A stretch of 64,000 bases of DNA from an uncultured bacterium (GTDB lineage: Bacteria; Hydrothermota; Tepidihabitantia; SM23-42), in NCBI GenBank assembly GCA_965603515.1, contig CBFDDH010000004.1, positions 11,929 through 75,928 on the forward strand, in the 5' to 3' direction. Below are positions 3,038 to 64,000 of this stretch, piece by piece; within the stretch, counting starts at the first letter, position 1; each line of letters begins with the position of its first letter. The position numbers were made by a program, and so were the translations under genes. The notes under the pieces were generated by a model that did not search any database, was not told where the DNA came from, and saw nothing but the letters and a program-made list of their open reading frames with translations.

Positions 3038-3051
3038 TCCATCAGAATAGA

Positions 3052-3092
3052 TAAAGCCCCGCATTTACATATTGAATGCGGGGCTTTATATT
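3052..3092. terminator. bidirectional rho-independent terminator hairpin between convergent genes
   Basis: Perfect inverted repeat aaagccccgcatt / aatgcggggcttt with a short loop, flanked by A/T runs, between the + BNR gene and the - gene ending at 3092. Confidence 0.6.
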
Positions 3093-3568: not shown

Positions 3569-3727
3569 ACATCCTCCTCGTTGCGATTCTTTTTAAGTAT
3601 ATGGAAGACAAGATAACAGTCAATATACAAACTTATATAATAGATTGTCTTAACTATGTGCCCGGGAAGCTTATGATTGACTTTTTTAATTTTTAAAGTA
3701 CTATATCTATATATTAAAGGAGGTAAC

Positions 3728-5371
3728 ATGAAAATATTCGTAGTTGTGATTTCTGTAGTGCTTACTCTTAGCTTTTTGGCAGGAGTACCGATGTCTCCGG
3801 AACTTGAGAATAAACTGAAAAGGGAAGGTCGATTCAATGAAGTTATTGAACAGCTTCAGCAAGCCAAAGAAAAGGGCGTAGATCAACCAAATCCAGCTCA
3901 TTATAATTTAGATCCTGGCGAGCAGACAACACTCCATGCTGTTGCCATTCTTGTTGATTTTTCTGACAAAGTGGCAACAACACCAAGTGCTCACTTTGAT
4001 TCGCTCCTTGCATCACAAGGAACATATCCAACCGGCTCTTTCCGTGATTTTTTTCTGGAAAACAGTTATAATAATATCGATGTCGTTATGACTGTCGTAG
4101 GGTGGTTTAGAATGCCACAAACCTATGCCTATTACGTAAACGGACAATATGGCTTTGGGCCATATCCGATGAATGCGCAAAGGATGGCTGAGGACGCAGT
4201 TTGGGCAGCAGACCCGACCGTAGATTTTTCTCAATTTGACAACGATAATAACGGTTACATAGATGCTCTTTTTATTGTGCATGCAGGACCTGGAGCAGAA
4301 CAAACCGGCAGTGTCAATGATATTTGGTCCCATGCATGGGTCACGGTCAATGTCCCCTACGTGGATAGTGTCTATGCCTATGGTTATTCGACAGAACCAG
4401 AGGACGGGAAAATAGGTGTCTTTTGCCACGAGGCCGGGCATAATGTTTTTGGACTTCCTGATTTATATGATTATGACTATGATTCGTACGGCACTGGGAG
4501 ATGGTCGCTTATGTCCAATGGCTCATGGAACGGGGGCGGTACATCACCATCGCATCTTGATGCCTGGTGCAAGATACAGACCGGCTTTGTTACTCCTCAA
4601 GTGCCTACAGCAAATCAGATGGGTGTGCTTTTTCCAAGAGTCATGGATAATCCTTTAGTCTATAAATTATGGTCTTATGGCACGCCAGGACTCGAGTATT
4701 TCTTGGTTGAAAATCGACAGCGAGTGGGATTTGATGCTACTTTGCCATATGCCGGTATGTTGATCTATCACGTAGATGACGCCAAATCCAATAATAATAA
4801 TCAGTGGTATCCGGGACATGCTACATACGGACATTATCTTGTTGCTGTTGAGCAAGCAGATGGTGCCTGGCATCTTGAACAATATATCAATGCGGGTGAT
4901 GTAAATGATCCGTGGCCCGGTACCTTGAATAGACGGTCTTTCAGCGATTCCACAACACCGGATACAAAAGATTATTCATTTACCACAACTTATGTTGCGG
5001 TAGATAATATAAGCAATTCGGGTGACACGATGACTGCTGATATTTATGTAAGACCGGTTGGTATCGAAGAAGAAATTTCATTAAAAAATACCGTTTCTGT
5101 ATTCAAAGTTGCACCCTCTATTGGTTCTGCTAGTTTCAATATTTCATTCTTCTCGCAGGATCAATATGATGCTATTACAATAAAAATACTGGATATCTCG
5201 GGAAGAATCGTGAAACGGTATGATGTCATCGCAGAACAGACAACTTGGTATGGCAACGATGATTCTGGCAAGCGCGTAGCACCTGGTGTATACTTTGTGC
5301 AAGTTGAATACAGGGATATGGAAAGCGCCGCTCGTTCTTTAGAAGTTAAACAGATCATTGTTGTAAATTAG
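3728..5371 (+). CDS. M6-family (immune inhibitor A-like) zinc metalloprotease with T9SS C-terminal sorting domain
   Basis: HEAGHNVFGLPDLYD zinc-binding motif typical of M6/InhA peptidases. Signal peptide. Strong Shine-Dalgarno (AAAGGAGGT) 8 nt before ATG 3728; the track ORF starts 17 codons earlier at 3677. C-terminal ~80 aa beta-sandwich-like domain (ITIKILDISGRIVKRY...GVYFVQVEY...) typical of T9SS cargo. Confidence 0.8.
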   Translation: MKIFVVVISVVLTLSFLAGVPMSPELENKLKREGRFNEVIEQLQQAKEKGVDQPNPAHYNLDPGEQTTLHAVAILVDFSDKVATTPSAHFDSLLASQGTYPTGSFRDFFLENSYNNIDVVMTVVGWFRMPQTYAYYVNGQYGFGPYPMNAQRMAEDAVWAADPTVDFSQFDNDNNGYIDALFIVHAGPGAEQTGSVNDIWSHAWVTVNVPYVDSVYAYGYSTEPEDGKIGVFCHEAGHNVFGLPDLYDYDYDSYGTGRWSLMSNGSWNGGGTSPSHLDAWCKIQTGFVTPQVPTANQMGVLFPRVMDNPLVYKLWSYGTPGLEYFLVENRQRVGFDATLPYAGMLIYHVDDAKSNNNNQWYPGHATYGHYLVAVEQADGAWHLEQYINAGDVNDPWPGTLNRRSFSDSTTPDTKDYSFTTTYVAVDNISNSGDTMTADIYVRPVGIEEEISLKNTVSVFKVAPSIGSASFNISFFSQDQYDAITIKILDISGRIVKRYDVIAEQTTWYGNDDSGKRVAPGVYFVQVEYRDMESAARSLEVKQIIVVN

Positions 5372-12950: not shown

Positions 12951-15506
12951 CTATTTCTTTATATAACTCAAGCTCTTATCAAATTTCCAGTCTTTATCAA
13001 AAAAACCTGCTGCTTTTACACCACCCCATCCGTATTTCAATACCGCCTTATCATAAACAAGAAAATCAGGTAAACCGGCACCCGCGTAAAGCGTGGAAAA
13101 CAAACCGATCAATTTCTCTGCCCGTTTTGTGGTTGCTGAATATAATAAGACGAATTTCTCAGGGGCTAGAGGGTTGGAATATATTTCTACCAAACAGAGA
13201 TCCCCTCTTATTGTATCTCTATCAACAATTACTCTACCTTCTTCAATATGAAGAGGTAATCTGTAGCTAATCCACTTGAGGATAGAGTTAGTTACAGAAT
13301 TCCCAAAGACAACAAGGTTATTGGTTTTGATGATCTTTTCCGTGACTTCTGTGTCAGGCAGTACCTCAACAAATCCATTTGCCCGGTACCACCAGGTATA
13401 GGACTGTAATCGCGCCTGATGCAGATTGTTCTCGGTTGATTTTGAATCACCGAGAGTTCCGTAAATAAGAACAAAAGGCTCAAAGTATGCTTTTTTTATA
13501 GGGCCATAACATCCTGCGTTCTTTCCAGAATGAGATCGGGTTGCCCAGAAAAATCCGTCACCATCTCTTTTAAAGGAAAGTTCACACGGTTCTCTATATT
13601 CAAACGTGAGGTGCTGATCATTTATAAAAAGATTGACAATACCGGGTGATATAAAATCGTCATTTAAAATCAGGGTAAAGGTGTTTACATTTGTTTCATT
13701 CACGATGATCTTGCACGTATCGGTTTGCTTCAATAATCCATCATTCTCAAGTTTTTTCTGTGCGACAAGTTCAATTTCAATCAAACCATCGTAATAAATA
13801 CTGTTGAGTTCATCGATCCTCACCCAGTATGCCTTATTTGAATGATCAATATTTGAGGTTTTAAATATCACTTTTTCAGGGTAGGGATTGCGCACCTTGC
13901 TCTTCAGAAAATCCATAAGCTCTTTTGAGTCCACACAGTCAGTACCTGGTGTGGAATCTATATTCCACCAGTGACCTTTACCTTCAACCTCGTTGTATTC
14001 ATAGTTATAGCCAAGATTGGTCAGGTATTTGCAGAACATCCTTGCCTGGATCGGTGGAACATTATCATCTGCACCCCCCTGTAAAAGATATATCGGTAGA
14101 TTGAGCGCGTTTTCCAAGAATAAAAGCGGATTGTCTTGTCGCAATACCATATCGCGATACTTTATCAGATCCGGATGCGCAAAGAGCTCACTTTTCTGAA
14201 GAAACCATGGGACATAGAGTTGAAAGCTCGTCCATCCAGCAGAAGGCGCCATTGCCGCGAAGATATCTGGATGGGTCATGCCGATATGCCAGGCACCATG
14301 ACCACCCATAGAATGTCCAGTAAGATAGATTCGGTTAGTATCAATCTTAAAATTCTTCTTTATCTCTTCTAAAACCTCAAGAAAATCGAGTCTGCCCCAG
14401 TCCTGCCAGTCAAAACCAAACCTGCGGCGATTGGTCGGCGCAACGACAAAAGCCCAATCTTTTTGTGTATACGCTTTCACCTGACCTCTTGCCTTAACAC
14501 CAGCTCCATGACAAGTCATTATGAGAGCATAAGATGTGTCTTCATTATAGTTTTCTGGTGGTAGAATCGCATAGTATTGACATGAATTATCGATTCGAGA
14601 AATAAAGGTCTTAGCATATGCCTCATCTCTGTTTTTCACTTTAATCCAGAAATCTTCTTGTGTAGAAAAAGTGTCAAAGGAAGCCGTTATAGTTATCAAA
14701 ATACTATCCTCTTCTGTTTCTATTTTAGCTTCTGATCCAATGTTTAATGGTATTTTAATTGCTGAAAAGGGCATTATATTGGTGATCGTCTGTGTTTGTA
14801 TTTTAATATTCACACCTGCTATTTTGAGTTCGATATCAGACATATGCTGGTTTGTCGCATTAACGATCGGTATTCCCAACCAGACACTGGCAGATTCACC
14901 CCTTACAAAATCTGGGGCAGTGATATCTTTGGTTATCACCATTAAAGGATCTGGTACTGGGATAATTCTAAATGTAAACTTGTGGTCCCCAAAACCACTG
15001 AGTTTTACTATCACCCTGTTCTTCCCTTTCTTTAGAAGAACCGGGACCTGTAAGAATCCATCGCCATACCGATCACCAGGGAGATTCACGCCATTTAAGA
15101 TAAACGAAGAGACCTTTTTTGCGATAACCAATGCCCGTCTCGTGCTGTCATTAGTAAACTCACCGTAGGCATAAGCGCCGCAAAGAACTCCAGCCGCGCC
15201 ATAATAATCTTGAATAGTATCCCATAAAACATTTTCGTATTCAATCTTAACTTCACCATTATCAGATTCTATTGTTTGCCACGCGACTTCACCATCCTGC
15301 ACGAGAAGACTCGGATATATCGCCTTTTTATCTGGCTCAAAATCCTCAAGAAGTCTAATGTTTTCCTCAACGCCGATGATCCCCTCTCTCATCCCTATTG
15401 AAAAAGGACCCAGGTATTGCCACTGGTGTATTGTAATCGTATCGTTAACACAAGGGATAAAAGAGAACTTACCTACAAAAAGCAGGAAAATAATATAATA
15501 ATTCAT
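12951..15506 (-). CDS. secreted S9-family (prolyl oligopeptidase-like) alpha/beta-hydrolase peptidase with large N-terminal beta domain
   Basis: Signal peptide. C-terminal catalytic region with GHSMGGHGA nucleophile-elbow motif plus downstream Asp/His (LQGGADDNVPP...GHWW). Confidence 0.7.
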   Translation of the reverse strand: MNYYIIFLLFVGKFSFIPCVNDTITIHQWQYLGPFSIGMREGIIGVEENIRLLEDFEPDKKAIYPSLLVQDGEVAWQTIESDNGEVKIEYENVLWDTIQDYYGAAGVLCGAYAYGEFTNDSTRRALVIAKKVSSFILNGVNLPGDRYGDGFLQVPVLLKKGKNRVIVKLSGFGDHKFTFRIIPVPDPLMVITKDITAPDFVRGESASVWLGIPIVNATNQHMSDIELKIAGVNIKIQTQTITNIMPFSAIKIPLNIGSEAKIETEEDSILITITASFDTFSTQEDFWIKVKNRDEAYAKTFISRIDNSCQYYAILPPENYNEDTSYALIMTCHGAGVKARGQVKAYTQKDWAFVVAPTNRRRFGFDWQDWGRLDFLEVLEEIKKNFKIDTNRIYLTGHSMGGHGAWHIGMTHPDIFAAMAPSAGWTSFQLYVPWFLQKSELFAHPDLIKYRDMVLRQDNPLLFLENALNLPIYLLQGGADDNVPPIQARMFCKYLTNLGYNYEYNEVEGKGHWWNIDSTPGTDCVDSKELMDFLKSKVRNPYPEKVIFKTSNIDHSNKAYWVRIDELNSIYYDGLIEIELVAQKKLENDGLLKQTDTCKIIVNETNVNTFTLILNDDFISPGIVNLFINDQHLTFEYREPCELSFKRDGDGFFWATRSHSGKNAGCYGPIKKAYFEPFVLIYGTLGDSKSTENNLHQARLQSYTWWYRANGFVEVLPDTEVTEKIIKTNNLVVFGNSVTNSILKWISYRLPLHIEEGRVIVDRDTIRGDLCLVEIYSNPLAPEKFVLLYSATTKRAEKLIGLFSTLYAGAGLPDFLVYDKAVLKYGWGGVKAAGFFDKDWKFDKSLSYIKK

Positions 15507-18833: not shown

Positions 18834-19016
18834 GATATACCTCGAATGAACAACATCGTGTTTTCTCAACGCTTTACTTTATTTGGGAGATTGCTTTCTC
18901 ACTCCGTTTCTCGCAATGACGAATTAGTATTTCAAAAAAGTGGCAAGGAGTCATGTAAAAATCTGTGTGAATCCACTTTTCATCCGCGTAATCTTTTCGC
19001 CCTTGGCGAAAAAAAA

Positions 19017-19133
<117 letters not shown>

Positions 19134-19142
19134 AATGCTCAA

Positions 19143-19201
19143 ACTCCAAGAACCAAAACCCAAGTCCCAATTTGGAGTTTGGAATTTGGGATTTGGAACT
19201 T
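19143..19201. repeat. CCAAGAACCAA / TTTGGAACTTGG palindromic repeat (copy A, in 23S-5S spacer)
   Basis: ctccaagaaccaaaacccaagtcccaatttggagtttggaatttgggatttggaacttg. Left arm is (ccaaga/ccaaaa)-like units, right arm their inverted complement (tttggag/tttggaa). Family members at 27199 and 32944. Confidence 0.7.
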
Positions 19202-19224
19202 GTAATAAGATGGCGGAAGATCAT

Positions 19225-22270
<3,046 letters not shown>

Positions 22271-22334
22271 TTCCGCCAATACTGATAAGTTGTCAAAGAT
22301 CAGAAAATCTGTTTAAGAATTACTACTACTACAC

Positions 22335-22362
22335 ATTATATTCATAAAAGCCCCTTTGTCAA
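22335..22362 (-). promoter_or_regulatory. near-consensus sigma-70-type promoter driving the 23S-5S operon
   Basis: On the minus strand: TTGACA (+ coords 22357-22362), 16-nt spacer, TATAAT (+ coords 22335-22340), ~65 nt upstream of the 23S 5' end. No 16S or tRNA between promoter and 23S. Confidence 0.55.
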
Positions 22363-22484
22363 GGGCAAAAAAAACCCAGCAAAAGAAAGTACGAATTTAA
22401 TTTAATCCTTCGCTGTAATCTTTATAGAATCGCTGTCCCGTCTTACGGGATAATCGACGATTTATGAGGTGTTTTCACGGATCG

Positions 22485-22949
22485 TTAGAAATAAAATCGG
22501 AATCCCAACCCGCCCTCAAAATCAAAATCTGTTTCCGGAATAAAATCAACTACCGGATAAATCTCTAAGAAGACGCCAAAACGATCTATCAAATATTCAA
22601 TCCCACCACCTAATCTTAAACCAATATGAAATTCTGTATCGTCACCAGGATCAGGCTCCTTTTTAACCCGAAACCTGCCACCGATTCCCAAGTAAGGAAC
22701 AATGTTTTCAAGCGCTCGTCCTTCCTCTCCTCGAATAACTCCGGGAAAGAGGAATTGATAATCACCCGTGATATGGAAACCAACATCGCCCAGGAAAGAC
22801 CATCCCGCATTTATCTGTATTGCTGATCTTCTGGCCATGAAATATTTCCCGGTAAATCCTGTCGGGCTGCCGATGATCACACCAATACCATACCCTCCGC
22901 CAAAAAGAACACAGGGTATTAAAAACAAAAGAATGCTATATTTTTTCAT
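22485..22949 (-). CDS. small outer-membrane beta-barrel protein, hypothetical
   Basis: Signal peptide, beta-strand periodicity, terminal ...GLGFRFYF; similar pattern to 9922..10434. Confidence 0.55.
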   Translation of the reverse strand: MKKYSILLFLIPCVLFGGGYGIGVIIGSPTGFTGKYFMARRSAIQINAGWSFLGDVGFHITGDYQFLFPGVIRGEEGRALENIVPYLGIGGRFRVKKEPDPGDDTEFHIGLRLGGGIEYLIDRFGVFLEIYPVVDFIPETDFDFEGGLGFRFYF

Positions 22950-22953
22950 ATCT

Positions 22954-24048
22954 CTACTCCCAACTATCTATTCTTAATGGCATTAATAGGTACATAAGGC
23001 CATCTTTTCCCTTTGGGGTTATCACCGCTGCGGTCGATTGTGAGGTCAGCTCGAAAACCACATCTCTAGAGTCCAGATGCCTTAATGTTTCCAGAACAAA
23101 ATTGGCATTGAACCAAACGCAGACTTTCTCTCCTTCATAGACGCACGGCACATCTTCGTTCGCCTCGCCAATATCAGGTGAAGATGCAGATAGGATAATT
23201 TTGCTTTCACTGAAGTCAAACTTCACATTCTTTATGTGTGGACTAGCCACCAACGACACTCTTTTTAGGGCACCGTCGAGGACTTCTTTCTCAACCGTGC
23301 ACTTCCCTGAAAATTCTTTGGGTATTACGCCTTCGTAGCTTGGATACGGTCCCTCAATCAAGCGCGCGATCACTGTAGTGTCGGGAAATTTAATACCCAT
23401 CATCCGTTCTTCAGTAAATATCTCTAATTTCTCCTCTGGTTTTGTATAGTCTATCAGATCAAAAAGTTTAGTTGCGATTATCAGTTCACCGTCGATTTCC
23501 TTTTTCTCTTTTTTGATCATTGCTAACCTGGCGCCATCAGTAGTAACCATTCTCAGTTCTTTCTTTTTTAGTTGAAGCAAGACCCCGTTCATTGGACGGC
23601 GACTAATATCCTTTGCCACCATGAAAGCCGTCGATTCGACCATTTCCTCAATTTCTCCAACACTTATTTCAAACCACTTTTTTTCAGGGAAAGTTGGTAC
23701 TTCAGGAAACTCCTGCGAATCCAATGAGGGAATGTCAAAACGCGCATTACCTGCAGCAATATGTAGTTTCAGTTCCTTTAATTTAAAAACAACATCGTCA
23801 ACCTGAGTTTCTCTGGTTATTTCGAGCAGTTTCTTACCAGGAATCAAGACTTTACCCTCTTCTTTGACTTCCGCTGGGATAACTTTTTTTATAAAAATAT
23901 CAAGGTCTGTAGCTTGAATCATTAAGGTCTTACCTTTGGTTTCGATAATAATGTTTTGCAAAACTGTATAGGTACTTTTTGGAGGAACAATTTTTACAAT
24001 GTTCGCTAAAGTTTTTGCTAAAACATTTCTCTTAATTTTAAATTCCAT
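22954..24048 (-). CDS. dnaN: DNA polymerase III beta sliding clamp
   Basis: 364 aa with three-domain clamp organisation (MEFKIKRNVLAKTLANIVKIVPPKST...). Directly downstream of dnaA. Confidence 0.93.
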   Translation of the reverse strand: MEFKIKRNVLAKTLANIVKIVPPKSTYTVLQNIIIETKGKTLMIQATDLDIFIKKVIPAEVKEEGKVLIPGKKLLEITRETQVDDVVFKLKELKLHIAAGNARFDIPSLDSQEFPEVPTFPEKKWFEISVGEIEEMVESTAFMVAKDISRRPMNGVLLQLKKKELRMVTTDGARLAMIKKEKKEIDGELIIATKLFDLIDYTKPEEKLEIFTEERMMGIKFPDTTVIARLIEGPYPSYEGVIPKEFSGKCTVEKEVLDGALKRVSLVASPHIKNVKFDFSESKIILSASSPDIGEANEDVPCVYEGEKVCVWFNANFVLETLRHLDSRDVVFELTSQSTAAVITPKGKDGLMYLLMPLRIDSWE

Positions 24049-24239
24049 GTAGCCTCCTTAATTATAACAACTACTATAATATAAAATATATAGCTGTTGT
24101 TGTTGTACAGTGGAAATGTTTATATCTACCAAAACCCTTTAGAATACGGACAAAACAAGGACTTCGATTGTTCGCAGAACTGTGCATAAACCTTGATAAC
24201 TTATTCATTTTTAAAAAATCGTCAAACATCCACATACTA

Positions 24240-25559
24240 TCAACTACTTATCCGATTAGTTATCCGCTCTAATCTTTGGAGATATTCGATATCAGCTTTC
24301 TTTAGCCCCTCTACTTTTTCAATTGCATGAATTACAGTTGAGTGATCCTTGCCTCCGAAGAACTCGCCGATTTCCGCGAGCGAAAGATTGAGCATTGTCC
24401 GTATTAAGTACATCGATGTTTGTCTGGCTAAAGCAAGTTTCTGGGTTCGTTTCTTGCCCCTTATTTCGGCTTCGCTGAAACCAAGTTCTTCGATCACGTT
24501 TTTCAAAATTATTTGTTTTGTAATTCTCCTGCCTGAACCCAGAAGGTCTTTTAGAACCTCTTCGGCGAGATGTTCATTGACCTCCTGTCCAGAAAGGGAA
24601 GATACCGCAAGCAGTCTTATCAAACAGCCCTCGAGTTCACGAATATTAGATTTTACACGCGAGGCGATATAGTATGCTACATTAGAAGGGATTTTGATGG
24701 TTTCTGACTCGGCTTTCTTCTGCAAAATCGCAATACGCGTCTCCAGATCCGGGGGTTGGAGGTCAACGACAAGACCACCTTGAAAACGCGATGTTAATCG
24801 TTCCTCAAGAGTTAGGATTTCTCTTGGCGGTCTGTCAGAAGTGATTATAACCTGCTTGCCGGCTGAGTAGAGGTGGTTAAAAATATGGAAGATCTCTTCT
24901 TGGAGCCGTTCCTTGCCATATAGGAACTGGATATCGTCGATCAACAAAACATCCTTGGTCCGATACTTTTTCTTGAATGTCATCTGTTGATTTTTCTGAA
25001 TTGCCTCGATCAACTCGGTCATTATGTTCTCAGCCTGGGTGTAAAAAACATTAGTTTTCTTATGCTGCCGATGCACAAAATTTCCGATTGCTTGCATCAA
25101 ATGGGTTTTGCCTAACCCGACACCCCCGTAGAGAAAGAGTGGGTTATATGCTTCTCCCGGTGCTTCTGCGACTGCCAATGCCGCAGCGTGAGCGAATTCA
25201 TTATTCTTGCCGACCACAAAACTCTCAAAAGTATACCTTTCTTGAAGTTTGGTTCCATCCCGGGCAAGAATCAGACGTTTTCTTTTTTTCTTAGGTCGAT
25301 CTCCTTGTTGTTTCAAAGCCTTAAAAGCAAGCCTTAATTTGTTCCCGTTTAGTTGATGGACCGCTTCTTCTAGGATATTGTAATAGTGTTCTTCGATCCA
25401 GTCGATCTGAAACACATTGGGGAATTCGACAAGAAGAACATCCTCTTTCAATTCAACTCCACAACTACCACCAAACCATGTGTTGAAAGACTGCGAGTTG
25501 ATTCTCTCCTGGATATAATCCAGGACATTTTTCCATGTATTATTTGCTTTTTTATCCAT
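24240..25559 (-). CDS. dnaA: chromosomal replication initiator DnaA
   Basis: AAA+ Walker A GGVGLGKTHL, sensor motifs, C-terminal DnaA-box-binding helix-turn-helix (KKRTQKLALARQTSMYLIRTMLNLSLAEIGEFFGGKDHSTVIHA). Stop TGA immediately followed by TAG. Confidence 0.95.
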   Translation of the reverse strand: MDKKANNTWKNVLDYIQERINSQSFNTWFGGSCGVELKEDVLLVEFPNVFQIDWIEEHYYNILEEAVHQLNGNKLRLAFKALKQQGDRPKKKRKRLILARDGTKLQERYTFESFVVGKNNEFAHAAALAVAEAPGEAYNPLFLYGGVGLGKTHLMQAIGNFVHRQHKKTNVFYTQAENIMTELIEAIQKNQQMTFKKKYRTKDVLLIDDIQFLYGKERLQEEIFHIFNHLYSAGKQVIITSDRPPREILTLEERLTSRFQGGLVVDLQPPDLETRIAILQKKAESETIKIPSNVAYYIASRVKSNIRELEGCLIRLLAVSSLSGQEVNEHLAEEVLKDLLGSGRRITKQIILKNVIEELGFSEAEIRGKKRTQKLALARQTSMYLIRTMLNLSLAEIGEFFGGKDHSTVIHAIEKVEGLKKADIEYLQRLERITNRISS

Positions 25560-52504: not shown

Positions 52505-53821
52505 GTGATTATGAGCACCCTTACACAAGATAAAGCATCTGCTGATAATTACGCACGGTTGAAACGCATTTGCGAGAAGAAGGACTATATTTTTAATCCT
52601 AATCAGGATTGGATTGCCCAGGTTATCAGGCTCATGACAAACAATCAAAAGGAATTCGGGAAATATTTTTGCCCGTGTAAACAACACTATCCGGTTGATA
52701 CAAAAGCCGATATTGTTTGTCCATGTCCTACGCTCGATCAGGAAGTCGCTGATAATGGATGTTGCCATTGTCGGCTCTTCTGCAAAAAGGATTTCAAACA
52801 AGAGAAGTTTGATATTCTTGAGACAATAACCTGCCCTGGTTGAGCGTCAAAAATGTCGGCTGCGCAGTTAGCGCAGGCACTTGCAATCCTTGACCGTCCA
52901 GCAGACAAGAATCTATTGGTCGGCGTTAATACCGCAGATGATGCTGGAATTTATAAAATCAGCGAGAATTCAGCGATAGTTTACACGATCGATATTCTTA
53001 CTCCGGTCGTGAGAAACCCGTATATCTACGGCCAGGTAGTTGCAGCAAATTCGATTTCAGATATCTATGCGATGGGCGGTGAGCCCAAGCTCGCCTTGAA
53101 TATCATGGGTTTTCCTGGAAATGGCGACCCGGAAACTATGGGCGAAATTCTACGCGGCGGTCAGGACAAAGCAAGAGAAGCTGGAGTTTTAATAATCGGG
53201 GGGCACACTTTTGTCGCCAAGGAAATTAAATACGGTCTTTCAGTGATCGGCTACATTCATCCGGATAAAATAATCACTAATGCTAATGCAAAACCAGATG
53301 ATCTCATTATTCTGACCAAGCCGCTTGGCACCGGGGTGATCGTTCAATCTGTCTTGGCCGGTAAAAAAGAGGGAGTGGATCTTAATCCAGTTCTTAAAGC
53401 AATGACCATGCTCAATCGTGATGCCTCGGTAGCGATGAGAAAAGCCGCTGTTCATGCGGCTACTGACGTTACTGGTTTTGGGTTAGCCGGGCATCTCGTG
53501 GAGATGGCCGAAGCAAGCCGGGTCGGTATTGAAATTAAACTTGCCAAGCTACCGCTACATGAAAAGGTGATCGAGCTTTTGAAACTTGGCATTGAAGATC
53601 CCGGTATTACAATGAACCGCGGTTCTTTTGCTGACCATGTAACAGGTAAGCATGCAGATGATCTGCGGGCAAAATTAATCTTCAGTTCAGAAACATCGGG
53701 CGGGCTGATTATTGTTCTGCCTGAAGAGAGACTTGATATCTTCAAAAAGCATTACGGCGGTCTGGCACCGGTCATTGGACGAGTAACAAGAGAAAACCCA
53801 GGACAGGTAATTGTACAGTAG
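52505..53821 (+). CDS. selD: selenophosphate synthetase (selenide, water dikinase) with in-frame UGA (52841-52843) read as selenocysteine, and N-terminal ferredoxin-thioredoxin-reductase-like Cys-rich domain
   Basis: Track ORFs 52505..52843 and 52853..53821 share one frame and are separated only by the TGA. Read-through gives ...DILETITCPG-U-ASKMSAAQLAQALAIL..., which aligns with E. coli SelD HGAG-C17-GCKISPKVLETIL and puts the UGA at the catalytic Cys/Sec position. The rest is the PurM-like SelD fold (NLLVGVNTADDAG, SDIYAMGG, TDVTGFGLAGH). Hairpin ctgcgc-agtta-gcgcag lies 16 nt after the UGA. The upstream ~110 aa carry CPC-X13-CPC-X12-CHC. Confidence 0.7.
52860..52876 (+). promoter_or_regulatory. 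putative bacterial SECIS hairpin for the selD UGA
   Basis: CUGCGC-AGUUA-GCGCAG: 6-bp GC-rich stem, 5-nt apical loop containing GU, starting 16 nt downstream of UGA. Confidence 0.45.
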
Positions 53822-57371: not shown

Positions 57372-58202
57372 TTAAATCCTTTTTCTAAACCCCTGACCTA
57401 ATACTTCAAATACATCGGTTAATATAACAAATGCCTTTTCGTCGATCCCCTTGATCAATGATTTGAAACTGTGGGTTTCTTTTTTAGTGATGACGCACAG
57501 AATAACCGGTTTCTTTTCTTTTGTGTATGGTGAGTATCCATCAAGGATTGTAACGCCCCGTTTCATCCTTTCGTATATTTCATCAGTGAGTTTCTCGTGC
57601 TCATCGCTGATTATGAAGGCGGCGCGTGCGTAATTCATGCCTTCAAGCACGAGGTCGATGACCTTAGACGAAAGAAATAGAGCAAGGTAGCCTAAAAGCG
57701 CTAATTCAATAGAGCCGGTAGTAATACCAGCCAGGGTTATGACCACGAAATCAACGATCATTATCCACATCCCGACTGATAAATTGGTTTTCCTGGTGAG
57801 GAGTTGTCCAGCAATATCAGTACCACCAGTACTTGCTCCAGCACGAAAGATGAGACCCAGGCCAAGTCCTAAAAGCAAACCACCATAAAGTGCGCCAAGT
57901 ATCACATTGTCCGTTGGTGTGGTTATTTTGAGTGTATATATGAAAAAGTCGATCAGGATATTAGTAATGAAAATTGCAATAATTGATTTCACTCCAAAGC
58001 GGAGCCCCAAAATTTTGAAGGCAACAAGGAAAAGAGGGATATTTAGAATTATCGTGATAATACCTACTGGCGAACGGTATAAGAAGTGCAATAGCATGGC
58101 AATCCCGGTTACGCCGCCAGGGACGATTTGATGCGGGATCAAGAATACCGCATAACTCAGAGCGCATAGCACACAACCGACAATTATGTATATTATCTTC
58201 AT
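57372..58202 (-). CDS. YitT-family membrane protein (DUF161 transmembrane region + DUF2179 C-terminal domain)
   Basis: Five TM helices with GGxTG-containing motifs (PGGVTGIAML, GASTGGTDIAG), soluble C-terminal domain. Confidence 0.75.
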   Translation of the reverse strand: MKIIYIIVGCVLCALSYAVFLIPHQIVPGGVTGIAMLLHFLYRSPVGIITIILNIPLFLVAFKILGLRFGVKSIIAIFITNILIDFFIYTLKITTPTDNVILGALYGGLLLGLGLGLIFRAGASTGGTDIAGQLLTRKTNLSVGMWIMIVDFVVITLAGITTGSIELALLGYLALFLSSKVIDLVLEGMNYARAAFIISDEHEKLTDEIYERMKRGVTILDGYSPYTKEKKPVILCVITKKETHSFKSLIKGIDEKAFVILTDVFEVLGQGFRKRI

Positions 58203-58265: not shown

Positions 58266-60434
58266 CTAAAATGAAATCTGCTGTTTTTTGTCAGTCTTAC
58301 CAGAATCCTTCCCAGATTTCTTGCCAGAGCCTACTTGTGCTTCACGCAACCTTGCAATGAATACCTTTATTTTTTCCAGTTCTTTTTTCTTCGAGGCGAT
58401 ATCTTTATCGAGGTTCTCTTTGTCACCATTCAATTTAACAATATTAGTCTTCATACCGTCCAACTTAGCGACGAGTGTAACGGCTTCCTTTTTCTTACCC
58501 TGGAGTTCAACGAGTTCTTGTTTCGTATCTTTAAGTTTTGCCTTTTGGTCTTCAATCTCAGTGTTGATATCAACAAGTTCCTGTCGTCTTTTATCCAATT
58601 TAGATATCATATTTGCCTCAATGACTTTGGCTTTTTCTGTTCTTCCCGTGACCTCAGAGTGTTTTATTTTTAGGTCGCCAACCTTGGCGTCCAGTTCATC
58701 GACATTCTTTGTCATTTTATCAACTTCAGTTTTGTACTTGTCGCGTTCTTTCAAGAGGTCCTTTGTTTCTTTCTTCAGTTGAGTAGCCGATGTTTCTTCT
58801 TCTTTTTTCAGGAATTCCAGCTTCTCAGTAAGCTTGTTTACCCTCTCATCTCTTTCTGTGATTTTTCCTTCGATAAGAGATAATTCCTTCTTACGAGTAT
58901 CGAGCAATTGTTTGACGTTTTCGTCTTGTTCAACTGCCAATTTGATATCCTCATATTCTTCCTTCATCTTAGGCAACGAAGTTGTTATTTCTTGATAATC
59001 ACCTTCAATTTCCTTTAACTTGGCTTCTTTTTCTTTGAGATCCTCAGCAACCTTTATCAATTCGATCTTTTTCTCCTGGAGGTCCTTATTGATCGCTTCG
59101 TATTTGTCGGCTTCTGGTTTAAGCTCGGCGATTTTCTTTTTCGCAAGCTCGATTGATTTACCTAGTTCTTGGGCTTCTCCTTTTCGAATATCGAAGTCTT
59201 GTTTTATTTTATTGTACTCGGGTTCTATTTTCCTCAGTTCTTTTTCTTTTTCTTTCAGTTCTGCAACCTGTGGTTTCAGCTCGTTGTATTCTTCACGGAT
59301 GCTATCGAGCTTGCCGCTAAGCTGATCAGATTGTTGCTGGTTCTTAGACAGCTCTTTTTCCAGGGCGATATTTTCTTTCTTTCTGTCTTTGTACTTATCG
59401 TCGAGTTCCTTGAAGGATGTTTCCATTGTTCCAAACTCCAGCTGGAACTGGGAAATATTCGAGACGAGTTCTGCTTCTTCCTCTCTCATCTTCTTAAGCT
59501 CTTCATTTATCTTATCGTGTTCTTTCTTAAGTTTAACTAGTTCCTTATTGTCTTTCTCCAGACTTTGTCTTTCCGCGGTCAAATTGCTGACGTCTTCGGT
59601 TAATTGCCCGAGGGCTTCGGTGTTTTCTTGGATTTCTGTTTTTATCTCGGCGATCTTGGTGGTTAGTTCCGGCTCCTCTGTTTTCATGTCCTCGATTGCC
59701 TTCTCGTATTGCCCCTTTGTTTCAGTCAGCGATTCAACTTCGGCGCTGAGTTTCGAATGTTGTTGTTCTTCTTTCTCGCGGCTCTTTTTCACAGTATCGA
59801 GTTCTTTACCAAGAGTATTTTTCTCTTCATTCATTATTTTCAAATCTTTTTCTGTAATCCGTAGGTCAGCAAGCGCATTGCGTAGGGTCTGTTCGACTTC
59901 CTGGTAATCGGTTTTCAATTCTTCGGTTTTCACTTTAATGCTATTGTATTGTCTTTCCTGGTCATTCTGACCTTTTTGAGTTTGCGTAAGTTCTTTTTCT
60001 ACGATATTGAGATCCTTGGATATGGAGGTATGGCGGCTTCTCATCTCTTTCATCTGACCGTCGAGCTTGCCTTTTTCTCCACTGAGCCGGTCAACATCTT
60101 TTCTCAAATCCTTTAAATTCTTTTCAAGTTTTTCTTTTTCTACGGAAAGTCTATTAATATCTTTTTGCGTTGAGTCAACCTTCCTGGCATCTTTGCCACT
60201 TGATTTTATGGATTCCTTAAGTGTTTTTTCTTCTTTCTTAAGGTTTTCAACTGTCTTTTTAAGATCCTCAAGCTCATCGGTTATTTCCATCTGAGACGAA
60301 TACGCATCGGCAATCTTGTCTTCCATTTCTTTGAGTTCTTTTTTCTTTTCATCGAGGCCACTTTCAGCCTGTTCGAGTTTTCCCAGTTTTTTCTCAAGAT
60401 CAGCTAAAATATCGGTGTCTTCTTTTTTTGCCAT
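58266..60434 (-). CDS. large K/E-rich coiled-coil protein, hypothetical
   Basis: 722 aa, almost entirely heptad-like, ~35% Lys+Glu, no TM or signal peptide. SD-like GGGGGTAAAATG upstream. Confidence 0.55.
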   Translation of the reverse strand: MAKKEDTDILADLEKKLGKLEQAESGLDEKKKELKEMEDKIADAYSSQMEITDELEDLKKTVENLKKEEKTLKESIKSSGKDARKVDSTQKDINRLSVEKEKLEKNLKDLRKDVDRLSGEKGKLDGQMKEMRSRHTSISKDLNIVEKELTQTQKGQNDQERQYNSIKVKTEELKTDYQEVEQTLRNALADLRITEKDLKIMNEEKNTLGKELDTVKKSREKEEQQHSKLSAEVESLTETKGQYEKAIEDMKTEEPELTTKIAEIKTEIQENTEALGQLTEDVSNLTAERQSLEKDNKELVKLKKEHDKINEELKKMREEEAELVSNISQFQLEFGTMETSFKELDDKYKDRKKENIALEKELSKNQQQSDQLSGKLDSIREEYNELKPQVAELKEKEKELRKIEPEYNKIKQDFDIRKGEAQELGKSIELAKKKIAELKPEADKYEAINKDLQEKKIELIKVAEDLKEKEAKLKEIEGDYQEITTSLPKMKEEYEDIKLAVEQDENVKQLLDTRKKELSLIEGKITERDERVNKLTEKLEFLKKEEETSATQLKKETKDLLKERDKYKTEVDKMTKNVDELDAKVGDLKIKHSEVTGRTEKAKVIEANMISKLDKRRQELVDINTEIEDQKAKLKDTKQELVELQGKKKEAVTLVAKLDGMKTNIVKLNGDKENLDKDIASKKKELEKIKVFIARLREAQVGSGKKSGKDSGKTDKKQQISF

Positions 60435-60454: not shown

Positions 60455-63400
60455 CTAAACCATATTAGCAATTCTTTCCTCCCGATTGGCGGGTTGGGCT
60501 GGAATTGACCACCGTTTTCCTAATGGACAAACATATTTTGTCCTCACCAACCCCAGGGGATGTGGTTTAATTCCTAAAATATCCGGTTGTACCGCGAGAC
60601 TTTGAAGTCGATGAAAGAAAAAGACACCGGGTGCTTCATCTAGTATCTTTTTCTCAATCTGTCGGTACAAACTAATTCTTTGGTTCAAGTTGCGTATTTT
60701 TCGTGCTTGATCAATATCACGGTCAATTTCAGAGGAAGAGAAGAAAAATGTGTTACCTGGTCTGCCATGTGATGCCGAGTGGAACAGAGGATACACAAAG
60801 TTATCAGGATCACCATTATCACTGACCCACCCCCGAAAAGAAAGTGTGGATTCGCAGGCATAAGTTCTTTCGATCAAATTTTGCCATGGCATAGGGTTTA
60901 TATCGATGCGTACCCCAATTGCCATGAGGCTCGTTTTGATGAACTCAGCCTGTTTTATTGCGGCTGGTGTGTCACTTATATCGAGCGCATATATACTGGG
61001 CAAACCACTGGGAAAGCCGGCTTCGCTCAGCAACCTTTTGCTTGTTGCCGGATTAAATTTGTAACCTTCCAAACGGTGATTAAAGACTTCCATTGAAGGT
61101 GGAAAAACCCCTTTTGCCCTTATTGCAGAACCTTTGAAAAACATATTCACTAATTGGTTTGTGTTAATAGCATGTGCGAGAGCTTGCCTGACCTGTTTGT
61201 TATCAAACGGTTTTTTCTGACAATTAATGCATAAATATAGTATCCCGAGTTCAGGGATGGTGTGGAGTAATTTTGGCATTTCAGCCCGCATTCGCTTTAA
61301 CGCATCACCGGTAGGCTGGAAAATCGATAGTGCGCGTTTTTTAAAGAGTTCATACCCCATATTCTCATCTTTAATAGTAAGAAAGTATAGTTCATCTACA
61401 GTGGGTCTCCCCTCAAAATAATGTTCATTAGCCTGAAGGATAATTCTATTTCCTTTTTCCCAGGCGATCAATTTGAAAGGTCCCGCACCAATCGGCAATT
61501 CATCATCCAGGTATGGGTCAGCGATATCACATGCCAGGTTAGCAAGAATCGGAAGAAATGGGTATTCCAAGCTAAGTTTTAGAGTGGAACTGTCAATTAT
61601 TTTTATCCCGAGCGCGGTTCTTTGTTTGCTTTCAGCGAATTCTGCGGCACCCGTGATCATATCAAAAAGACTACAATTTGGTCCCTCAAGAGCCCGGATA
61701 ATTGATTCCCTGATATCCTCAACCATAATTGGCCTGCCATTCTGATATTTTAAGTTTTCGCGCAGCCGGAAGATATATTCTCGACCATCCTGTGATACTG
61801 AGTAATTTTGGCAGAGCCCAGGGATTATATCCGCTCCATCGCCGAATTGAAACAGTCCAGATGAATAGTTGTAGATCACCCGGTGAGAATTGACATCAGT
61901 CTTCACATCGGGTCTCAGGGTTAACGGATCGCTAGGTAAGTTGACCGTTAATATCTTCTTTGTTCTAATATATCCTGGCGCTTCACCTTTTTTGTGAACG
62001 AATAACCGATCGAATGAACTGCCCGCTTTAGAAATTTGATCAATAACCCCTTCGTAGTTATCCCACGCATTACTGAGTGTTGTATTTTCTTTATCTAAGC
62101 TGGTGATGATTTTCGAAATTTCCTCGGCTTGTTCCTTTTCTTCACCAAACACACGGCTGATGTCATCGAGGAATATTCTTATTTTCGAATAATCCGGTGG
62201 TTTGATCTTTCCTGAACGCGCCACCATCTTTTCTTTATTCAAGACATGAGCATCTTTTTTTACCAGCGTTAGTTGTGGAACAATGTCGGCGAATGCCTGC
62301 TCGGTTTCTGCTTCAAGCTGGATAAACTCATCCACGATAGGGGAGATAATGTCCTGGTATTCTGAGCTTCGGCCCTGTTCGATTTTCGCAAAGACAGACA
62401 GGGTTTTGATCTTATTGAAAATTTTACCGGTTGAAGAAACAAGTACCTCAATCTTCTTGATCTCAGAACTTAAATTCTTACCCAGATCATTCAGGCGTTC
62501 ATAGACATTTTGTATTTCATCCAGGAAATTTTCAATCTGCTTACCCAAATCAACGATTTGTGCCATATCCGTACCCAGAGCTTCCTTGTATCCATGAATT
62601 TCTTTAATAGAGTTATTGAGTTCCACTATTTGACCGGTCATATTGCCAATACTTTGGTAGATCTTATGCGGGAACAGTGGGGGTTGTTTGCCGGTTGAGA
62701 ACTTACCTATGGTTGTTATATTCTCCTGTAAAAAAAAATTATATTGTTGTTCAATAAACGATATACCTGAATTTTCAAAATCAGTTGAGGTTTGTTCCTT
62801 AACTGATGAACAAATAGTGCTTAGAACACTTAATGTCTGCGCAAGAGAATTAATTTGTTTACAGTGAACTGAGATATCGTCGATTGTATTCATCGATGTG
62901 AGGAACTGGTTTTTTAGAACACTTAATCCTTCGGAAACAGTGGCTTTTAGTTCCTGGTTAACGCTGCTATTTTCTTCCAGTTGGGTAATTATGTTCTGCA
63001 GTGATACAGTTGTGTCATCGATCGTCTTCAGGGATTTAAACGATTGTTTCAGTAAAACACGTGCACGTGATGAGAGTTCGATTGTTTTTCTCAGTTCCTC
63101 GACTACTGGGCGGACGATTTGCTCAAGGTTATTCAGCAAAGCACTGAAATCATGGAATGGAAGTTGGGCAAGCTGGGCAAGTGAAAGGCACTCTTTAGCG
63201 ATAATTGCCAACCCCTTACCTTCTTTTTTTGCGTGGTGAGCGCGTATTTCTGTATTCTTGGAAAGACTAGCCAGGGATTGAGCTGATTTAATAAAGAGAT
63301 CTGCGTTGTTCTGGATTTGCTGTGACCTGTTGATCAATGACTTCAGAAGTTCATTGAGGTTCAGCAGCCGGTCACTAATTTGCTTCATAGTATCTTCGTA

Positions 63401-63628
63401 TTGCGTGTACGAAACCCTTAACGTGACGATATCCTGCTGTAGGATATTGGAGTAATCCTGGATGATCTGTATCAGTTCATCGCCCCGTGAAAAAAGGGTA
63501 AAGAGAAGTTCCATTTCCAGAGTGAGCTGTTTTATATTATCATTGTTCTTATCTAATAATCGAGAGACCTCATTCACGTGATCCCCGAGGATTGCAGTCT
63601 TATTAAAGTACTCGTTAATTTGTGCCAT
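60455..63628 (-). CDS. fusion protein: N-terminal MCP-signalling-domain-like coiled-coil region + C-terminal family-5 solute-binding protein (SBP_bac_5) domain
   Basis: Residues ~130-160 (NTEIRAHHAKKEGKGLAIIAKECLSLAQLAQ) match the MCP signalling core ([30 protein letters not shown]). The C-terminal ~520 aa are a typical cluster-C peptide/nickel-type SBP. No signal peptide or TM. Start set at ATG 63626-63628, because the longer track ORF overlaps tRNA-Met. Confidence 0.65.
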   Translation of the reverse strand: MAQINEYFNKTAILGDHVNEVSRLLDKNNDNIKQLTLEMELLFTLFSRGDELIQIIQDYSNILQQDIVTLRVSYTQYEDTMKQISDRLLNLNELLKSLINRSQQIQNNADLFIKSAQSLASLSKNTEIRAHHAKKEGKGLAIIAKECLSLAQLAQLPFHDFSALLNNLEQIVRPVVEELRKTIELSSRARVLLKQSFKSLKTIDDTTVSLQNIITQLEENSSVNQELKATVSEGLSVLKNQFLTSMNTIDDISVHCKQINSLAQTLSVLSTICSSVKEQTSTDFENSGISFIEQQYNFFLQENITTIGKFSTGKQPPLFPHKIYQSIGNMTGQIVELNNSIKEIHGYKEALGTDMAQIVDLGKQIENFLDEIQNVYERLNDLGKNLSSEIKKIEVLVSSTGKIFNKIKTLSVFAKIEQGRSSEYQDIISPIVDEFIQLEAETEQAFADIVPQLTLVKKDAHVLNKEKMVARSGKIKPPDYSKIRIFLDDISRVFGEEKEQAEEISKIITSLDKENTTLSNAWDNYEGVIDQISKAGSSFDRLFVHKKGEAPGYIRTKKILTVNLPSDPLTLRPDVKTDVNSHRVIYNYSSGLFQFGDGADIIPGLCQNYSVSQDGREYIFRLRENLKYQNGRPIMVEDIRESIIRALEGPNCSLFDMITGAAEFAESKQRTALGIKIIDSSTLKLSLEYPFLPILANLACDIADPYLDDELPIGAGPFKLIAWEKGNRIILQANEHYFEGRPTVDELYFLTIKDENMGYELFKKRALSIFQPTGDALKRMRAEMPKLLHTIPELGILYLCINCQKKPFDNKQVRQALAHAINTNQLVNMFFKGSAIRAKGVFPPSMEVFNHRLEGYKFNPATSKRLLSEAGFPSGLPSIYALDISDTPAAIKQAEFIKTSLMAIGVRIDINPMPWQNLIERTYACESTLSFRGWVSDNGDPDNFVYPLFHSASHGRPGNTFFFSSSEIDRDIDQARKIRNLNQRISLYRQIEKKILDEAPGVFFFHRLQSLAVQPDILGIKPHPLGLVRTKYVCPLGKRWSIPAQPANREERIANMV

Positions 63629-63636
63629 AAGTTTAG

Positions 63637-63709
63637 TAGCGGCGGAGGGATTTGAACCCCCGACACAGAGATTATGATTCTCCTGCTCTGCCAACTGAGC
63701 TACGCCGCC
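63637..63709 (-). tRNA. tRNA-Met (anticodon CAU; elongator or tRNA-Ile2 lysidine type, not initiator)
   Basis: ggcggcg-ta-gctc-agttggca-gagc-a-ggaga-atCATaa-tctct-gtgtc-ggggg-ttcaaat-ccctc-cgccgct-a. Full cloverleaf. No 3 consecutive G-C pairs in the anticodon stem. Confidence 0.85.
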
Positions 63710-63828
63710 TCAACCAAAATTATATCTAGAAATGGTGTGCTGTCAATGACGATAAGCCCGGATTTCCAAGTGTTTTATGTTGACTTCACGTGGAAATACG
63801 TTATTCTAATACTTAACCTATGCGGATT

Positions 63829-64000
63829 CCTATAAGAATAAAATTCACTACCCTGATTTTTCTCCTAATGCTGGTGATAACGAGTGTTATCTTCTGGTTC
63901 ACTCTACATCGAGTCAGAAAGTCTTTGACTCACGAAATAAGACTCCAGGGTGAAATTCTGGCGAACCTTATTGCTTTAAATGCCGAAGATCCATTGATCG
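63829..64000 (+). CDS. membrane protein, N-terminal fragment (possible sensor/HAMP-type signalling protein); continues beyond window
   Basis: ATG 63829: MRIPIRIKFTTLIFLLMLVITSVIFWFTLHRVRKSLTHEIRLQGEILANLIALNAEDPLI... TM helix followed by amphipathic helix. Open to the window end. Confidence 0.4.

Follow-up and report, generated by a model that had tools for sequence, protein, structure and literature searches.

A cytoplasmic protein of WOR-3 bacteria joins two MCP-type hairpins to a DppA/OppA-type solute-binding domain

Introduction

Solute-binding proteins (SBPs) have been described in a review as extracytosolic proteins that feed chemoreceptors by non-covalent docking in the periplasm (PMC8050422). 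The 64,000-nucleotide stretch of contig CBFDDH010000004.1 analyzed here, referred to below as the window, carries a gene for a receptor-like protein of 1057 amino acids (aa) in which an SBP_bac_5 domain follows a region resembling the signaling domain of methyl-accepting chemotaxis proteins (MCPs). In the original prediction, made from the sequence, this protein was put forward as a soluble chemoreceptor or signaling scaffold that senses an intracellular peptide or metal ligand. Its homologues are named 'ABC transporter / peptide-nickel substrate-binding protein' (NCBI, JGI) or 'hypothetical' in public records, an exact-sequence look-up of the receptor itself matched no record, and a literature search found no paper mentioning MCPsignal together with SBP_bac_5. 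The question raised by this locus is whether its product is a transport protein, a chemoreceptor or something derived from a chemoreceptor. Our analysis favors a cytoplasmic sensor or scaffold that is soluble, derives from a chemoreceptor and takes a peptide-type input, a reading to which we assign a probability of about 0.55. The coordinates of all features are given in Table 1.

Results

Two predicted MCP-type hairpins in the N-terminal half

A Pfam search with the single receptor sequence matched MCPsignal (PF00015) at aa 81-225 (E = 9.1e-7). The score of 29.3 bits is under the Pfam gathering score of 34.6, and on this threshold alone the receptor would be a borderline MCP. The same model was matched by 35 of the 36 family members at E < 1e-3 (best 3.5e-12). 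When a profile of six homologues was searched against 177,635 PDB sequences, the best match was the soluble receptor Tm14 of T. maritima (3g67, E = 1.3e-8), followed by TM1143 (2ch7). An hhalign comparison of aa 1-283 to a canonical MCP profile, consisting of 116 MCP segments which were chosen among matches to the family profile and which all have the canonical tip motif, gave a probability of 99.4% (E = 1e-21) over 239 columns with the tip in register. Hairpin 2 has no separate Pfam match; its comparison to the same profile gave a probability of 93.9% (E = 1.6e-7), again with the tips in register, and its segment TLSVFAKIEQGRSSEYQDIISPIVDEF aligned to the canonical MCP segment. Compared directly, the two hairpins are weakly similar (P = 0.004). 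In an exhaustive profile search of 1.84 billion representative sequences, the family itself came first, followed by a gap and then by approximately 1300 weaker matches, of which the inspected ones were canonical MCPs.

Structure prediction with AlphaFold2 (AF2), using alignments of six and of 36 sequences, gave both hairpins in both runs, with turns at aa 132-137 (EGKG) and 421-424. The predicted local distance difference test scores (pLDDT) of the two runs were 80.8 and 84.7, the latter belonging to the full-length model from 36 sequences (predicted template modeling score, pTM, 0.67). Foldseek searches with the N-terminal half alone returned mostly generic long coiled coils (SMC, Rad50), and a probability of approximately 1.0 was reached only by MCPs. 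These alignments and models indicate that the N-terminal half consists of two tandem MCP-type hairpins, the first clearly MCP-like and the second degenerate. The MCP-like character that had been proposed for this half was thus borne out by hhalign and by the homologues, though not by the single-sequence Pfam score, and the MCP helical hairpin was recovered by structure prediction. The segment NTEIRAHHAKKEGKGLAIIAKECLSLAQ, which had been picked out as the conserved MCP core, is the predicted tip of hairpin 1, where conservation within the N-terminal half peaks. The coiled-coil-rich region as a whole is not one MCP domain with a generic coiled coil attached, but two hairpins. Tandem hairpins recur elsewhere: the nearest match outside the family (P0019, 563 aa, a library match that does not lie in the window) is a soluble, DosM-like protein with two fully canonical tandem MCP domains.

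Within the family, the segments of highest conservation are both tips, aa 478-494 and a block around the SBP pocket. Invariant residues of tip 1 are K124, N125, I128, A130, A133, E136, G137, G139, I143, A144, and L150. Tip residues of canonical MCPs (N381, E385, R388, E391, F396, and E402 in Tsr) are represented to different extents in the two hairpins. Tip 1 retains N125, G137, G139, A144, and E146 of the canonical tip, and hairpin 2 retains the equivalents of E385, R388, and E402 according to hhalign.

A DppA-related domain with an altered pocket

The C-terminal SBP_bac_5 fold of the original prediction was confirmed by a match to PF00496 at aa 601-953 (E = 4e-68, 230.6 bits against a cut-off of 32.4). 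The top NCBIfam models were those of DppA, GsiB, SapA, NikA, and OppA, all of which scored far under their equivalog cut-offs; for the DppA equivalog NF043070 the receptor falls short with 194 bits against 1005. The nearest solved protein is E. coli DppA (1DPP, E = 1.4e-57). Foldseek searches with the AF2 model returned DppA, GbpA, OppA, and MppA, with template modeling scores of 0.82-0.87 for liganded and 0.68-0.72 for open forms. The three-lobed Venus-flytrap fold of an SBP is complete in the model, and its first beta-strand, at aa 556, corresponds to the expected start of a mature periplasmic SBP.

The most conserved segment of the entire receptor (0.93) is the block GWVSDNGDPDNFVYPLFHS, which contains Asp937, and the GWVSDNGDPDNF block around this residue is at least 90% conserved across the family. 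Asp937 is the equivalent of DppA Asp408, which forms a salt bridge with the N-terminus of the bound peptide (PMC3295651). Because this aspartate is invariant or nearly so throughout the family, a peptide-type ligand is plausible for the SBP domain, in line with the intracellular peptide ligand suggested originally. In the alignment with DppA, the position of Arg355, which binds the carboxylate of the dipeptide, is occupied by Asp886 in the receptor, and the position of Tyr357 is deleted. With the Asp408 equivalent kept and these two positions changed, the pocket appears to be maintained, yet it is predicted not to be a DppA-type dipeptide pocket.

The gene start was assigned to the ATG at 63628. 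An alternative TTG start at 63694 was rejected; it falls within the tRNA-Met gene, and because a reading frame opened there would run through the tRNA, the ATG is the true start. The N-terminus counted from this methionine is conserved among the homologues. No transmembrane segment was found in the receptor (the 19-residue Kyte-Doolittle mean peaks at 1.25) or across 36 homologues (highest mean 1.51), no signal peptide or lipobox was found in the 36 members, and neither the first 50 aa of the receptor nor the N-terminus of any of these members have a hydrophobic core. As had been proposed, the protein is cytoplasmic, judging from these sequence properties, and its SBP domain follows 550 aa of helices of cytoplasmic type. 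Opp/Dpp-type permease or ATPase genes adjoin the receptor gene in none of the loci examined, and no ABC-transporter gene was found within approximately 10 kb in some 20 loci of the subfamily to which the window receptor belongs. Since the protein has no export signal, no adjoining ABC genes and an altered pocket, it is neither a DppA equivalog nor the SBP of a transporter.

A WOR-3 family with a relative in a che operon

Word-indexed and exhaustive searches identified approximately 35 full-length homologues (1028-1094 aa, 41-95% identity). The family is rare, with approximately 12 clusters at 50% identity among the 1.84 billion representatives. Among 185,579 species genomes, all 15 loci found (15/15) are in metagenome-assembled genomes (MAGs) of WOR-3 or 'Ca. 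Stahlbacteria', the closest having 94% identity over the N-terminal 560 aa, and every homologue with an organism name, named NCBI records included, has the same affiliation. The phylogenetic distribution, which had been suggested as a check, therefore shows a family found only in WOR-3/Stahlbacteria, and the architecture arose within the phylum WOR-3. Two complete WOR-3 chromosomes, CP070664.1 and CP070834.1, are among the carriers of the gene. One MAG, Zod_Metabat.699, has two diverged receptor copies, each behind its own tRNA-Met (L015 and L016); these could be a true paralogue pair or could stem from mixed strains in the bin.

A few members have no SBP domain. These forms of approximately 550 aa consist of the two hairpins alone (L002, 1457..3115; proteins P0005, P0006, P0008, and P0195), with a tRNA-Met gene in front and a shorter, 537-aa version of the coiled-coil partner described below behind. 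In a neighbor-joining tree of the hairpin region, rooted on P0029 and calculated without bootstrap, their clade lies inside the SBP-bearing, partner-linked sequences, and this nested position suggests that the SBP domain was secondarily lost.

P0029 (HIE06306.1, 1018 aa), from a 'Ca. Stahlbacteria' MAG, is collinear with aa 98-1029 of the receptor (28% identity, E = 5e-107) over a region that spans both tips and the family-specific SBP motifs. It has the unusual tip variant NAEIK.YHA in common with the window receptor, and with 53.3 bits it scores over the MCPsignal cut-off of 34.6. Its gene heads an operon with overlapping stop and start codons, in which genes for CheW (65 bits), a CheY-type receiver, CheA (with Hpt, P2, H-kinase_dim, and HATPase_c domains), CheC/CheX, and a TPR protein follow; a CheR-TPR gene is located two genes upstream. 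The locus has no tRNA-Met in front of the receptor gene and no coiled-coil partner. As the gene of P0029 opens a cheW-cheY-cheA-cheC/X operon and has cheR in its vicinity, the protein architecture at this locus is that of a genuine soluble chemoreceptor. The collinearity of P0029 and the nested position of the SBP-less clade further indicate that the fusion arose once, as a che-operon receptor, and that the lineage of the window later changed its genomic context and partner. A metagenome scan with P0029 as a query for further che-linked members gave two weak SBP-only matches and no che-linked member.

A tRNA-Met gene in front and a coiled-coil partner behind

A TTGACA box and a -10 box were found at the same position in 19 of 20 related loci. 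The tRNA-Met gene, in which CCA is not encoded, is located upstream of the receptor gene in every related locus with upstream DNA, at 7-10 nucleotides (nt) from the ATG in 10 of the 13 loci measured. No Shine-Dalgarno sequence precedes the ATG of the receptor and no space is available for a second promoter. Because the promoter precedes the tRNA and the ATG has neither a Shine-Dalgarno sequence nor promoter space of its own, the message of the receptor is very probably a tRNA-mRNA co-transcript, which becomes nearly leaderless once the 3' end of the tRNA has been processed.

In every locus with enough DNA the gene order is tRNA-Met(CAU), receptor, coiled-coil protein, and the last of these starts 7-20 nt past the receptor stop codon or overlaps it in every locus. 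The 722-aa lysine/glutamate (K/E)-rich coiled-coil gene noticed originally is real, and its product is the obligate operon partner of the receptor. It is 712-736 aa long in most loci (537 or 387 aa in two lineages), and helical and K/E-rich throughout its length. The N-terminal sequence MAKK[ED]DxDIL is conserved (window 60390..60434), and the C-terminus ..QISF-COOH is invariant and follows a G/S/K-rich linker (window 58266..58340), an arrangement reminiscent of the tethering pentapeptide with which some MCPs end. The motif PDYSKIKxFLDDIxRVF (aa 478-494 of the receptor) is present in all partner-linked members, the SBP-less ones included, and is absent from P0029; it is a candidate partner-contact site.

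A homologue search with the partner gave no match, its word prefilter being swamped by K/E-rich proteins. Matches to Pfam, NCBIfam, and PADLOC models (SMC, Rad50, JetC, LmuB, HmpF, and SpiroCoCo) concern coiled-coil arms and are far under cut-offs. An SMC-like protein or a defense system was ruled out, as there is no ATPase head and the sub-threshold matches are limited to arms. A diverged MCP was ruled out as well; the matches to the MCP hidden Markov model (HMM) are short, carry 74-90 bits of bias and fall in arm regions, never at the tip.

Neighboring genes and the wider window

Downstream of the partner lies a gene for a YitT/DUF2179 membrane protein. Because it adjoins the unit in several but not all loci, it is probably not part of the receptor-partner unit. 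The partial membrane sensor gene at the end of the window is a cyclase gene: its first 61 aa are identical to those of the full gene at L008 (2307..3623), and it adjoins the unit only in close relatives, being a variable neighbor. The suggestion of a signaling locus thus holds for the coiled-coil gene as an obligate partner and not for the cyclase gene, which is not consistently linked.

The window is a chromosomal stretch with recA, alaS, dnaA-dnaN, prs, fusA, and genes for V-ATPase subunits. Genes for 23S and 5S rRNA (19016..25559, minus strand) are located directly downstream of dnaA-dnaN and a 154-aa open reading frame; the 16S gene is not in the window, and the rRNA genes are hence not linked. 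A minimum of the cumulative GC skew at 24-26 kb fits an origin beside dnaA. A selD gene is present in the window (52853..53821) and a tRNA-Sec gene at the che-operon locus (L023, 5870..5961), and the WOR-3 genomes concerned appear to use selenium, as selenocysteine or selenouridine. Several secreted peptidases (M6 and one S9-like) and proteins with FlgD_ig/Por_Secre_tail C-terminal sorting domains are encoded in the window (2135..5371, plus strand; 12951..15506, minus strand), and the secreted peptidases carry tails of the type IX secretion system (T9SS) type. These proteins point to a T9SS-dependent, protein-degrading lifestyle, which fits a peptide-type sensor ligand.

Table 1. Features of the receptor locus (positions in the window; aa numbering of the receptor)
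Feature	Position	Strand	Description	Basis
Promoter	63719..63746	-	Consensus sigma-70 type, TTGACA-16-TATAAT, 12/12; ends 9 nt 5' of the tRNA	Sequence match
tRNA-Met	63636..63709	-	Anticodon CAU; co-oriented; ends 7 nt 5' of the receptor start codon	
Receptor-like coding sequence	60455..63628	-	1057 aa plus stop; two MCP-type hairpins, then SBP_bac_5 domain	ATG start
Hairpin 1	62792..63628	-	aa 1-279; MCP signaling-domain homologue; helices 2-132 and 134-279	AF2, hhalign, PDB profile
Tip 1	63173..63283	-	aa 116-152, AQSLASLSKNTEIRAHHAKKEGKGLAIIAKECLSLAQ	Conservation analysis
Connector	62669..62791	-	aa 280-320; short helix 283-307 and conserved PPLFP loop	AF2 and conservation
Hairpin 2	62003..62668	-	aa 321-542; degenerate; helices 321-420, 425-465, and 481-542	AF2, hhalign
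Tip 2	62297..62419	-	aa 404-444, FNKIKTLSVFAKIEQGRSSEYQDIISPIVDEFIQLEAETEQ; K408, L410, and E417 invariant	Conservation analysis
Subfamily-specific motif	62147..62197	-	aa 478-494, PDYSKIRIFLDDISRVF; at break in return arm of hairpin 2	Conservation 0.77
Linker	61964..62002	-	aa 543-555; low confidence, variable	pLDDT 62-68; conservation ~0.3
SBP domain	60509..61963	-	aa 556-1040; DppA/OppA-type, cluster C	Pfam, NCBIfam, PDB alignment, AF2, Foldseek
Asp937 codon	60818..60820	-	DppA Asp408 equivalent, in GWVSDNGDPDNF block	DppA alignment and conservation
Partner coding sequence	58266..60434	-	722-aa K/E-rich coiled-coil protein; own GGGGG Shine-Dalgarno sequence	
YitT/DUF2179 membrane protein gene	57372..58202	-	Downstream neighbor in several, not all loci	
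Partial cyclase gene	63820..64000	+	Divergent; N-terminus of 438-aa sCache/HAMP/adenylate-guanylate (class-III) membrane cyclase	

Discussion

How a sensor with this architecture might work can be outlined from its parts. The order of the domains had been regarded as reversed relative to canonical MCPs. The SBP domain is indeed C-terminal, but the order is less odd than it seemed: the two ends of a hairpin chain come to lie together at one end of the bundle, so that a sensor occupies the same place whether it is attached N- or C-terminally. For the SBP domain this would mean a place at the end of hairpin 2 away from the tip, the 'input' end, which is topologically that of the input domains of MCPs. 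The ligand of the domain may be an intracellular compound bearing a free amino group; a short peptide is the likeliest candidate and would suit an organism with many secreted peptidases. When the flytrap closes, the docking of the SBP domain on the helical bundle, or the loading of the bundle, could be altered, and the closed form might dock on the bundle in a way comparable to the docking of liganded DppA on Tap (PMC8050422). Partners bound to the two conserved tips would read this change; in P0029 these would be CheW and CheA, and in the subfamily of the window either Che proteins encoded elsewhere or the co-translated coiled-coil partner. That the window subfamily may be coupled to Che proteins is what we infer, by analogy, from P0029; the extreme conservation of the tips, partly common to P0029, likewise favors retained array-type contacts.

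Several observations weigh against a chemoreceptor-derived sensor. At tip 1 the equivalent of F396, a residue that is invariant in MCPs, is Leu in 35 of 36 members, that of E385 is Arg/Lys, and that of R388 is His (H/Q). No conserved Glx-Glx methylation motif was found, the three matches in the receptor being kept in 1, 1, and 10 of 36 members. The linker into the SBP domain is flexible and variable, so that rigid mechanical coupling is unlikely, and with the carboxylate-binding Arg355 replaced by Asp the ligand would not be a DppA-type dipeptide. The SBP-less members keep the partner, so that the core function of the subfamily needs no SBP domain. No che, flagellar or pilus gene is present within the 64-kb window or within approximately 10 kb of the receptor gene in some 20 loci of the window subfamily, and no linkage to che genes was found in 465 kb of related loci. 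The linkage to che genes rests on a single lineage, the P0029 cluster. The soluble-chemoreceptor reading of the original prediction is directly supported by the collinear protein of the che operon, and not by the surroundings of the window gene. A single strain of WOR-3, sy37, has been cultured; it bears pili, and no motility was seen in it (PMC12285271). A literature search on chemotaxis or flagella in WOR-3 gave nothing informative, three WOR-3 genome papers making no mention of them.

Much of this could also be explained by a Che-independent structural scaffold, in which the hairpins and the partner of approximately 720 aa build a cytoskeleton-like rod or lattice and the SBP domain is an adaptor and not a signal input. 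We consider such a scaffold possible, though well short of probable. It would account for a partner that is obligate in every locus at a spacing of 7-20 nt or with overlap, for the consensus tRNA promoter that drives both proteins and suggests high, growth-linked expression, for the lack of che genes nearby and of conserved methylation sites, and for a motif at aa 478-494 that follows the partner, retained also by SBP-less members, and not the SBP domain. That a receptor with a double signaling domain can serve chiefly as the scaffold of an array is known from DosM (PMC7534058). The most conserved parts of the receptor are, however, the tips and the Asp block of the ligand pocket, which fits receptor-type interactions and ligand binding, and the unusual tip variant is common to the che-operon relative P0029. 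MCP genes are moreover commonly unlinked to che operons, so that missing neighbors say little. A related idea, which we consider decidedly unlikely, is that the SBP domain is a clamp that grips a terminal peptide of the partner, either its N-terminus (AKK.. after removal of Met) or the ..QISF tail, and not a free metabolite. The conserved termini with a flexible linker before QISF-COOH would suit a clamp, as would the absence of an ABC transporter nearby and a pocket in which the Asp that binds the N-terminus is kept while an acidic residue at the DppA carboxylate site suits a basic N-terminal peptide; P0029, however, has the same pocket residues and no partner gene, and the partners of SBP-less members have the same termini.

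The names in the NCBI and JGI records, together with the complete fold, would be explained if an ABC importer used the protein as a conventional extracytoplasmic SBP, carried on a long stalk at its N-terminus and exported along a pathway that cannot be recognized in the sequence. This is highly improbable given that 0 of 36 members have a signal peptide, lipobox or transmembrane segment, that no locus has Opp/Dpp-type permease or ATPase genes, that the N-terminal half is an MCP signaling domain and such domains lie in the cytoplasm in every known MCP, and that a relative lies within a che operon. Hardly any credit is left for the explanation that the MCP resemblance is an artefact of coiled-coil composition, to which the sub-threshold Pfam score of the single sequence and the weak MCP HMM matches of the K/E-rich partner might point. 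The alignment of the receptor extends over 239 columns including the tip, whereas the matches of the partner are short, biased and confined to the arms. This explanation is refuted by the profile match to Tm14, the hhalign result, the MCPsignal matches of 35 of 36 members and the score of P0029 over the cut-off.

A chemoreceptor-derived sensor or scaffold can be compared to several known systems. With Tm14, a class IV soluble MCP (PDB 3G67) and the best PDB sequence match, the receptor shares the absence of a transmembrane segment and the long antiparallel hairpin, and the family has a member in a che operon. Compared to Tm14, the receptor adds a degenerate second hairpin and a C-terminal SBP domain of 500 aa, its tip has diverged (F to L, E to R/K, R to H), conserved methylation sites are lacking and its subfamily is not linked to che genes. 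TlpD of Helicobacter pylori is a soluble MCP with a C-terminal CZB sensor and therefore also has its sensor C-terminal to the signaling hairpin; this sensor is a small zinc-binding four-helix domain on a single hairpin, whereas the receptor has a Venus-flytrap of 500 aa. In SgrR-type regulators, a cytoplasmic SBP_bac_5 domain is fused to an N-terminal winged-helix DNA-binding domain, so that SBP_bac_5 serves as an intracellular sensor fused to an output module there as well (the receptor has a weak NCBIfam match to SgrR, E = 0.006). The output of SgrR is, however, DNA binding instead of MCP hairpins, and there is no close sequence relationship.

DosM (VC1403) of the F9 arrays of Vibrio cholerae has two MCP-type signaling hairpins in one soluble chain and works largely as an array scaffold (PMC7534058). 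Both of its domains are canonical, their tips pointing in opposite directions so that the protein spans two CheA/CheW baseplates; it has no SBP domain, and its gene belongs to a che cluster that includes a triple CheW, whereas hairpin 2 of the receptor is degenerate, an SBP domain is present and the locus has no che cluster. In E. coli, periplasmic DppA, an SBP_bac_5 protein, activates the MCP Tap (PMC8050422). In this pair, as in AibA-TlpB of H. pylori, an SBP_bac_5 protein feeds a ligand signal to an MCP, and the SBP domain of the receptor is closest to DppA. The difference is that the SBPs of these pairs are separate periplasmic proteins, which dock on the periplasmic domain of an MCP that spans the membrane and work for an ABC importer as well, whereas in the receptor SBP and MCP parts are united in a single cytoplasmic chain and transporter genes are absent from the neighborhood.

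The F-to-L change of the tip, the absence of methylation sites, the tRNA promoter, the obligate partner and the DosM precedent favor a scaffold-like, possibly Che-independent role. In a more specific and unlikely version, the protein would be a chemoreceptor turned into a Che-independent cytoplasmic assembly, with the tips and the PDYSKIKxFLDDI segment binding a partner of approximately 100 nm, the SBP domain, formerly periplasmic, acting as an intracellular clamp, and the whole unit expressed as a near-leaderless tRNA-mRNA co-transcript. If true, such an assembly would clamp a metabolite-sized peptide or a terminus of the partner, and would link the nutritional state to a cytoskeleton-like structure.

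For a chemoreceptor-derived sensor, a complete DppA-like SBP fused to a soluble double-hairpin MCP would be a direct and genetically simple model for SBP-to-MCP signaling, and would add a new type of cytoplasmic sensing domain to those of chemoreceptors. The names 'ABC transporter substrate-binding protein' would mislead metabolic reconstructions of WOR-3. In the second lineage, to which the window belongs, a receptor that left the chemotaxis pathway and gained an obligate partner would be a natural experiment in the repurposing of chemoreceptor arrays.

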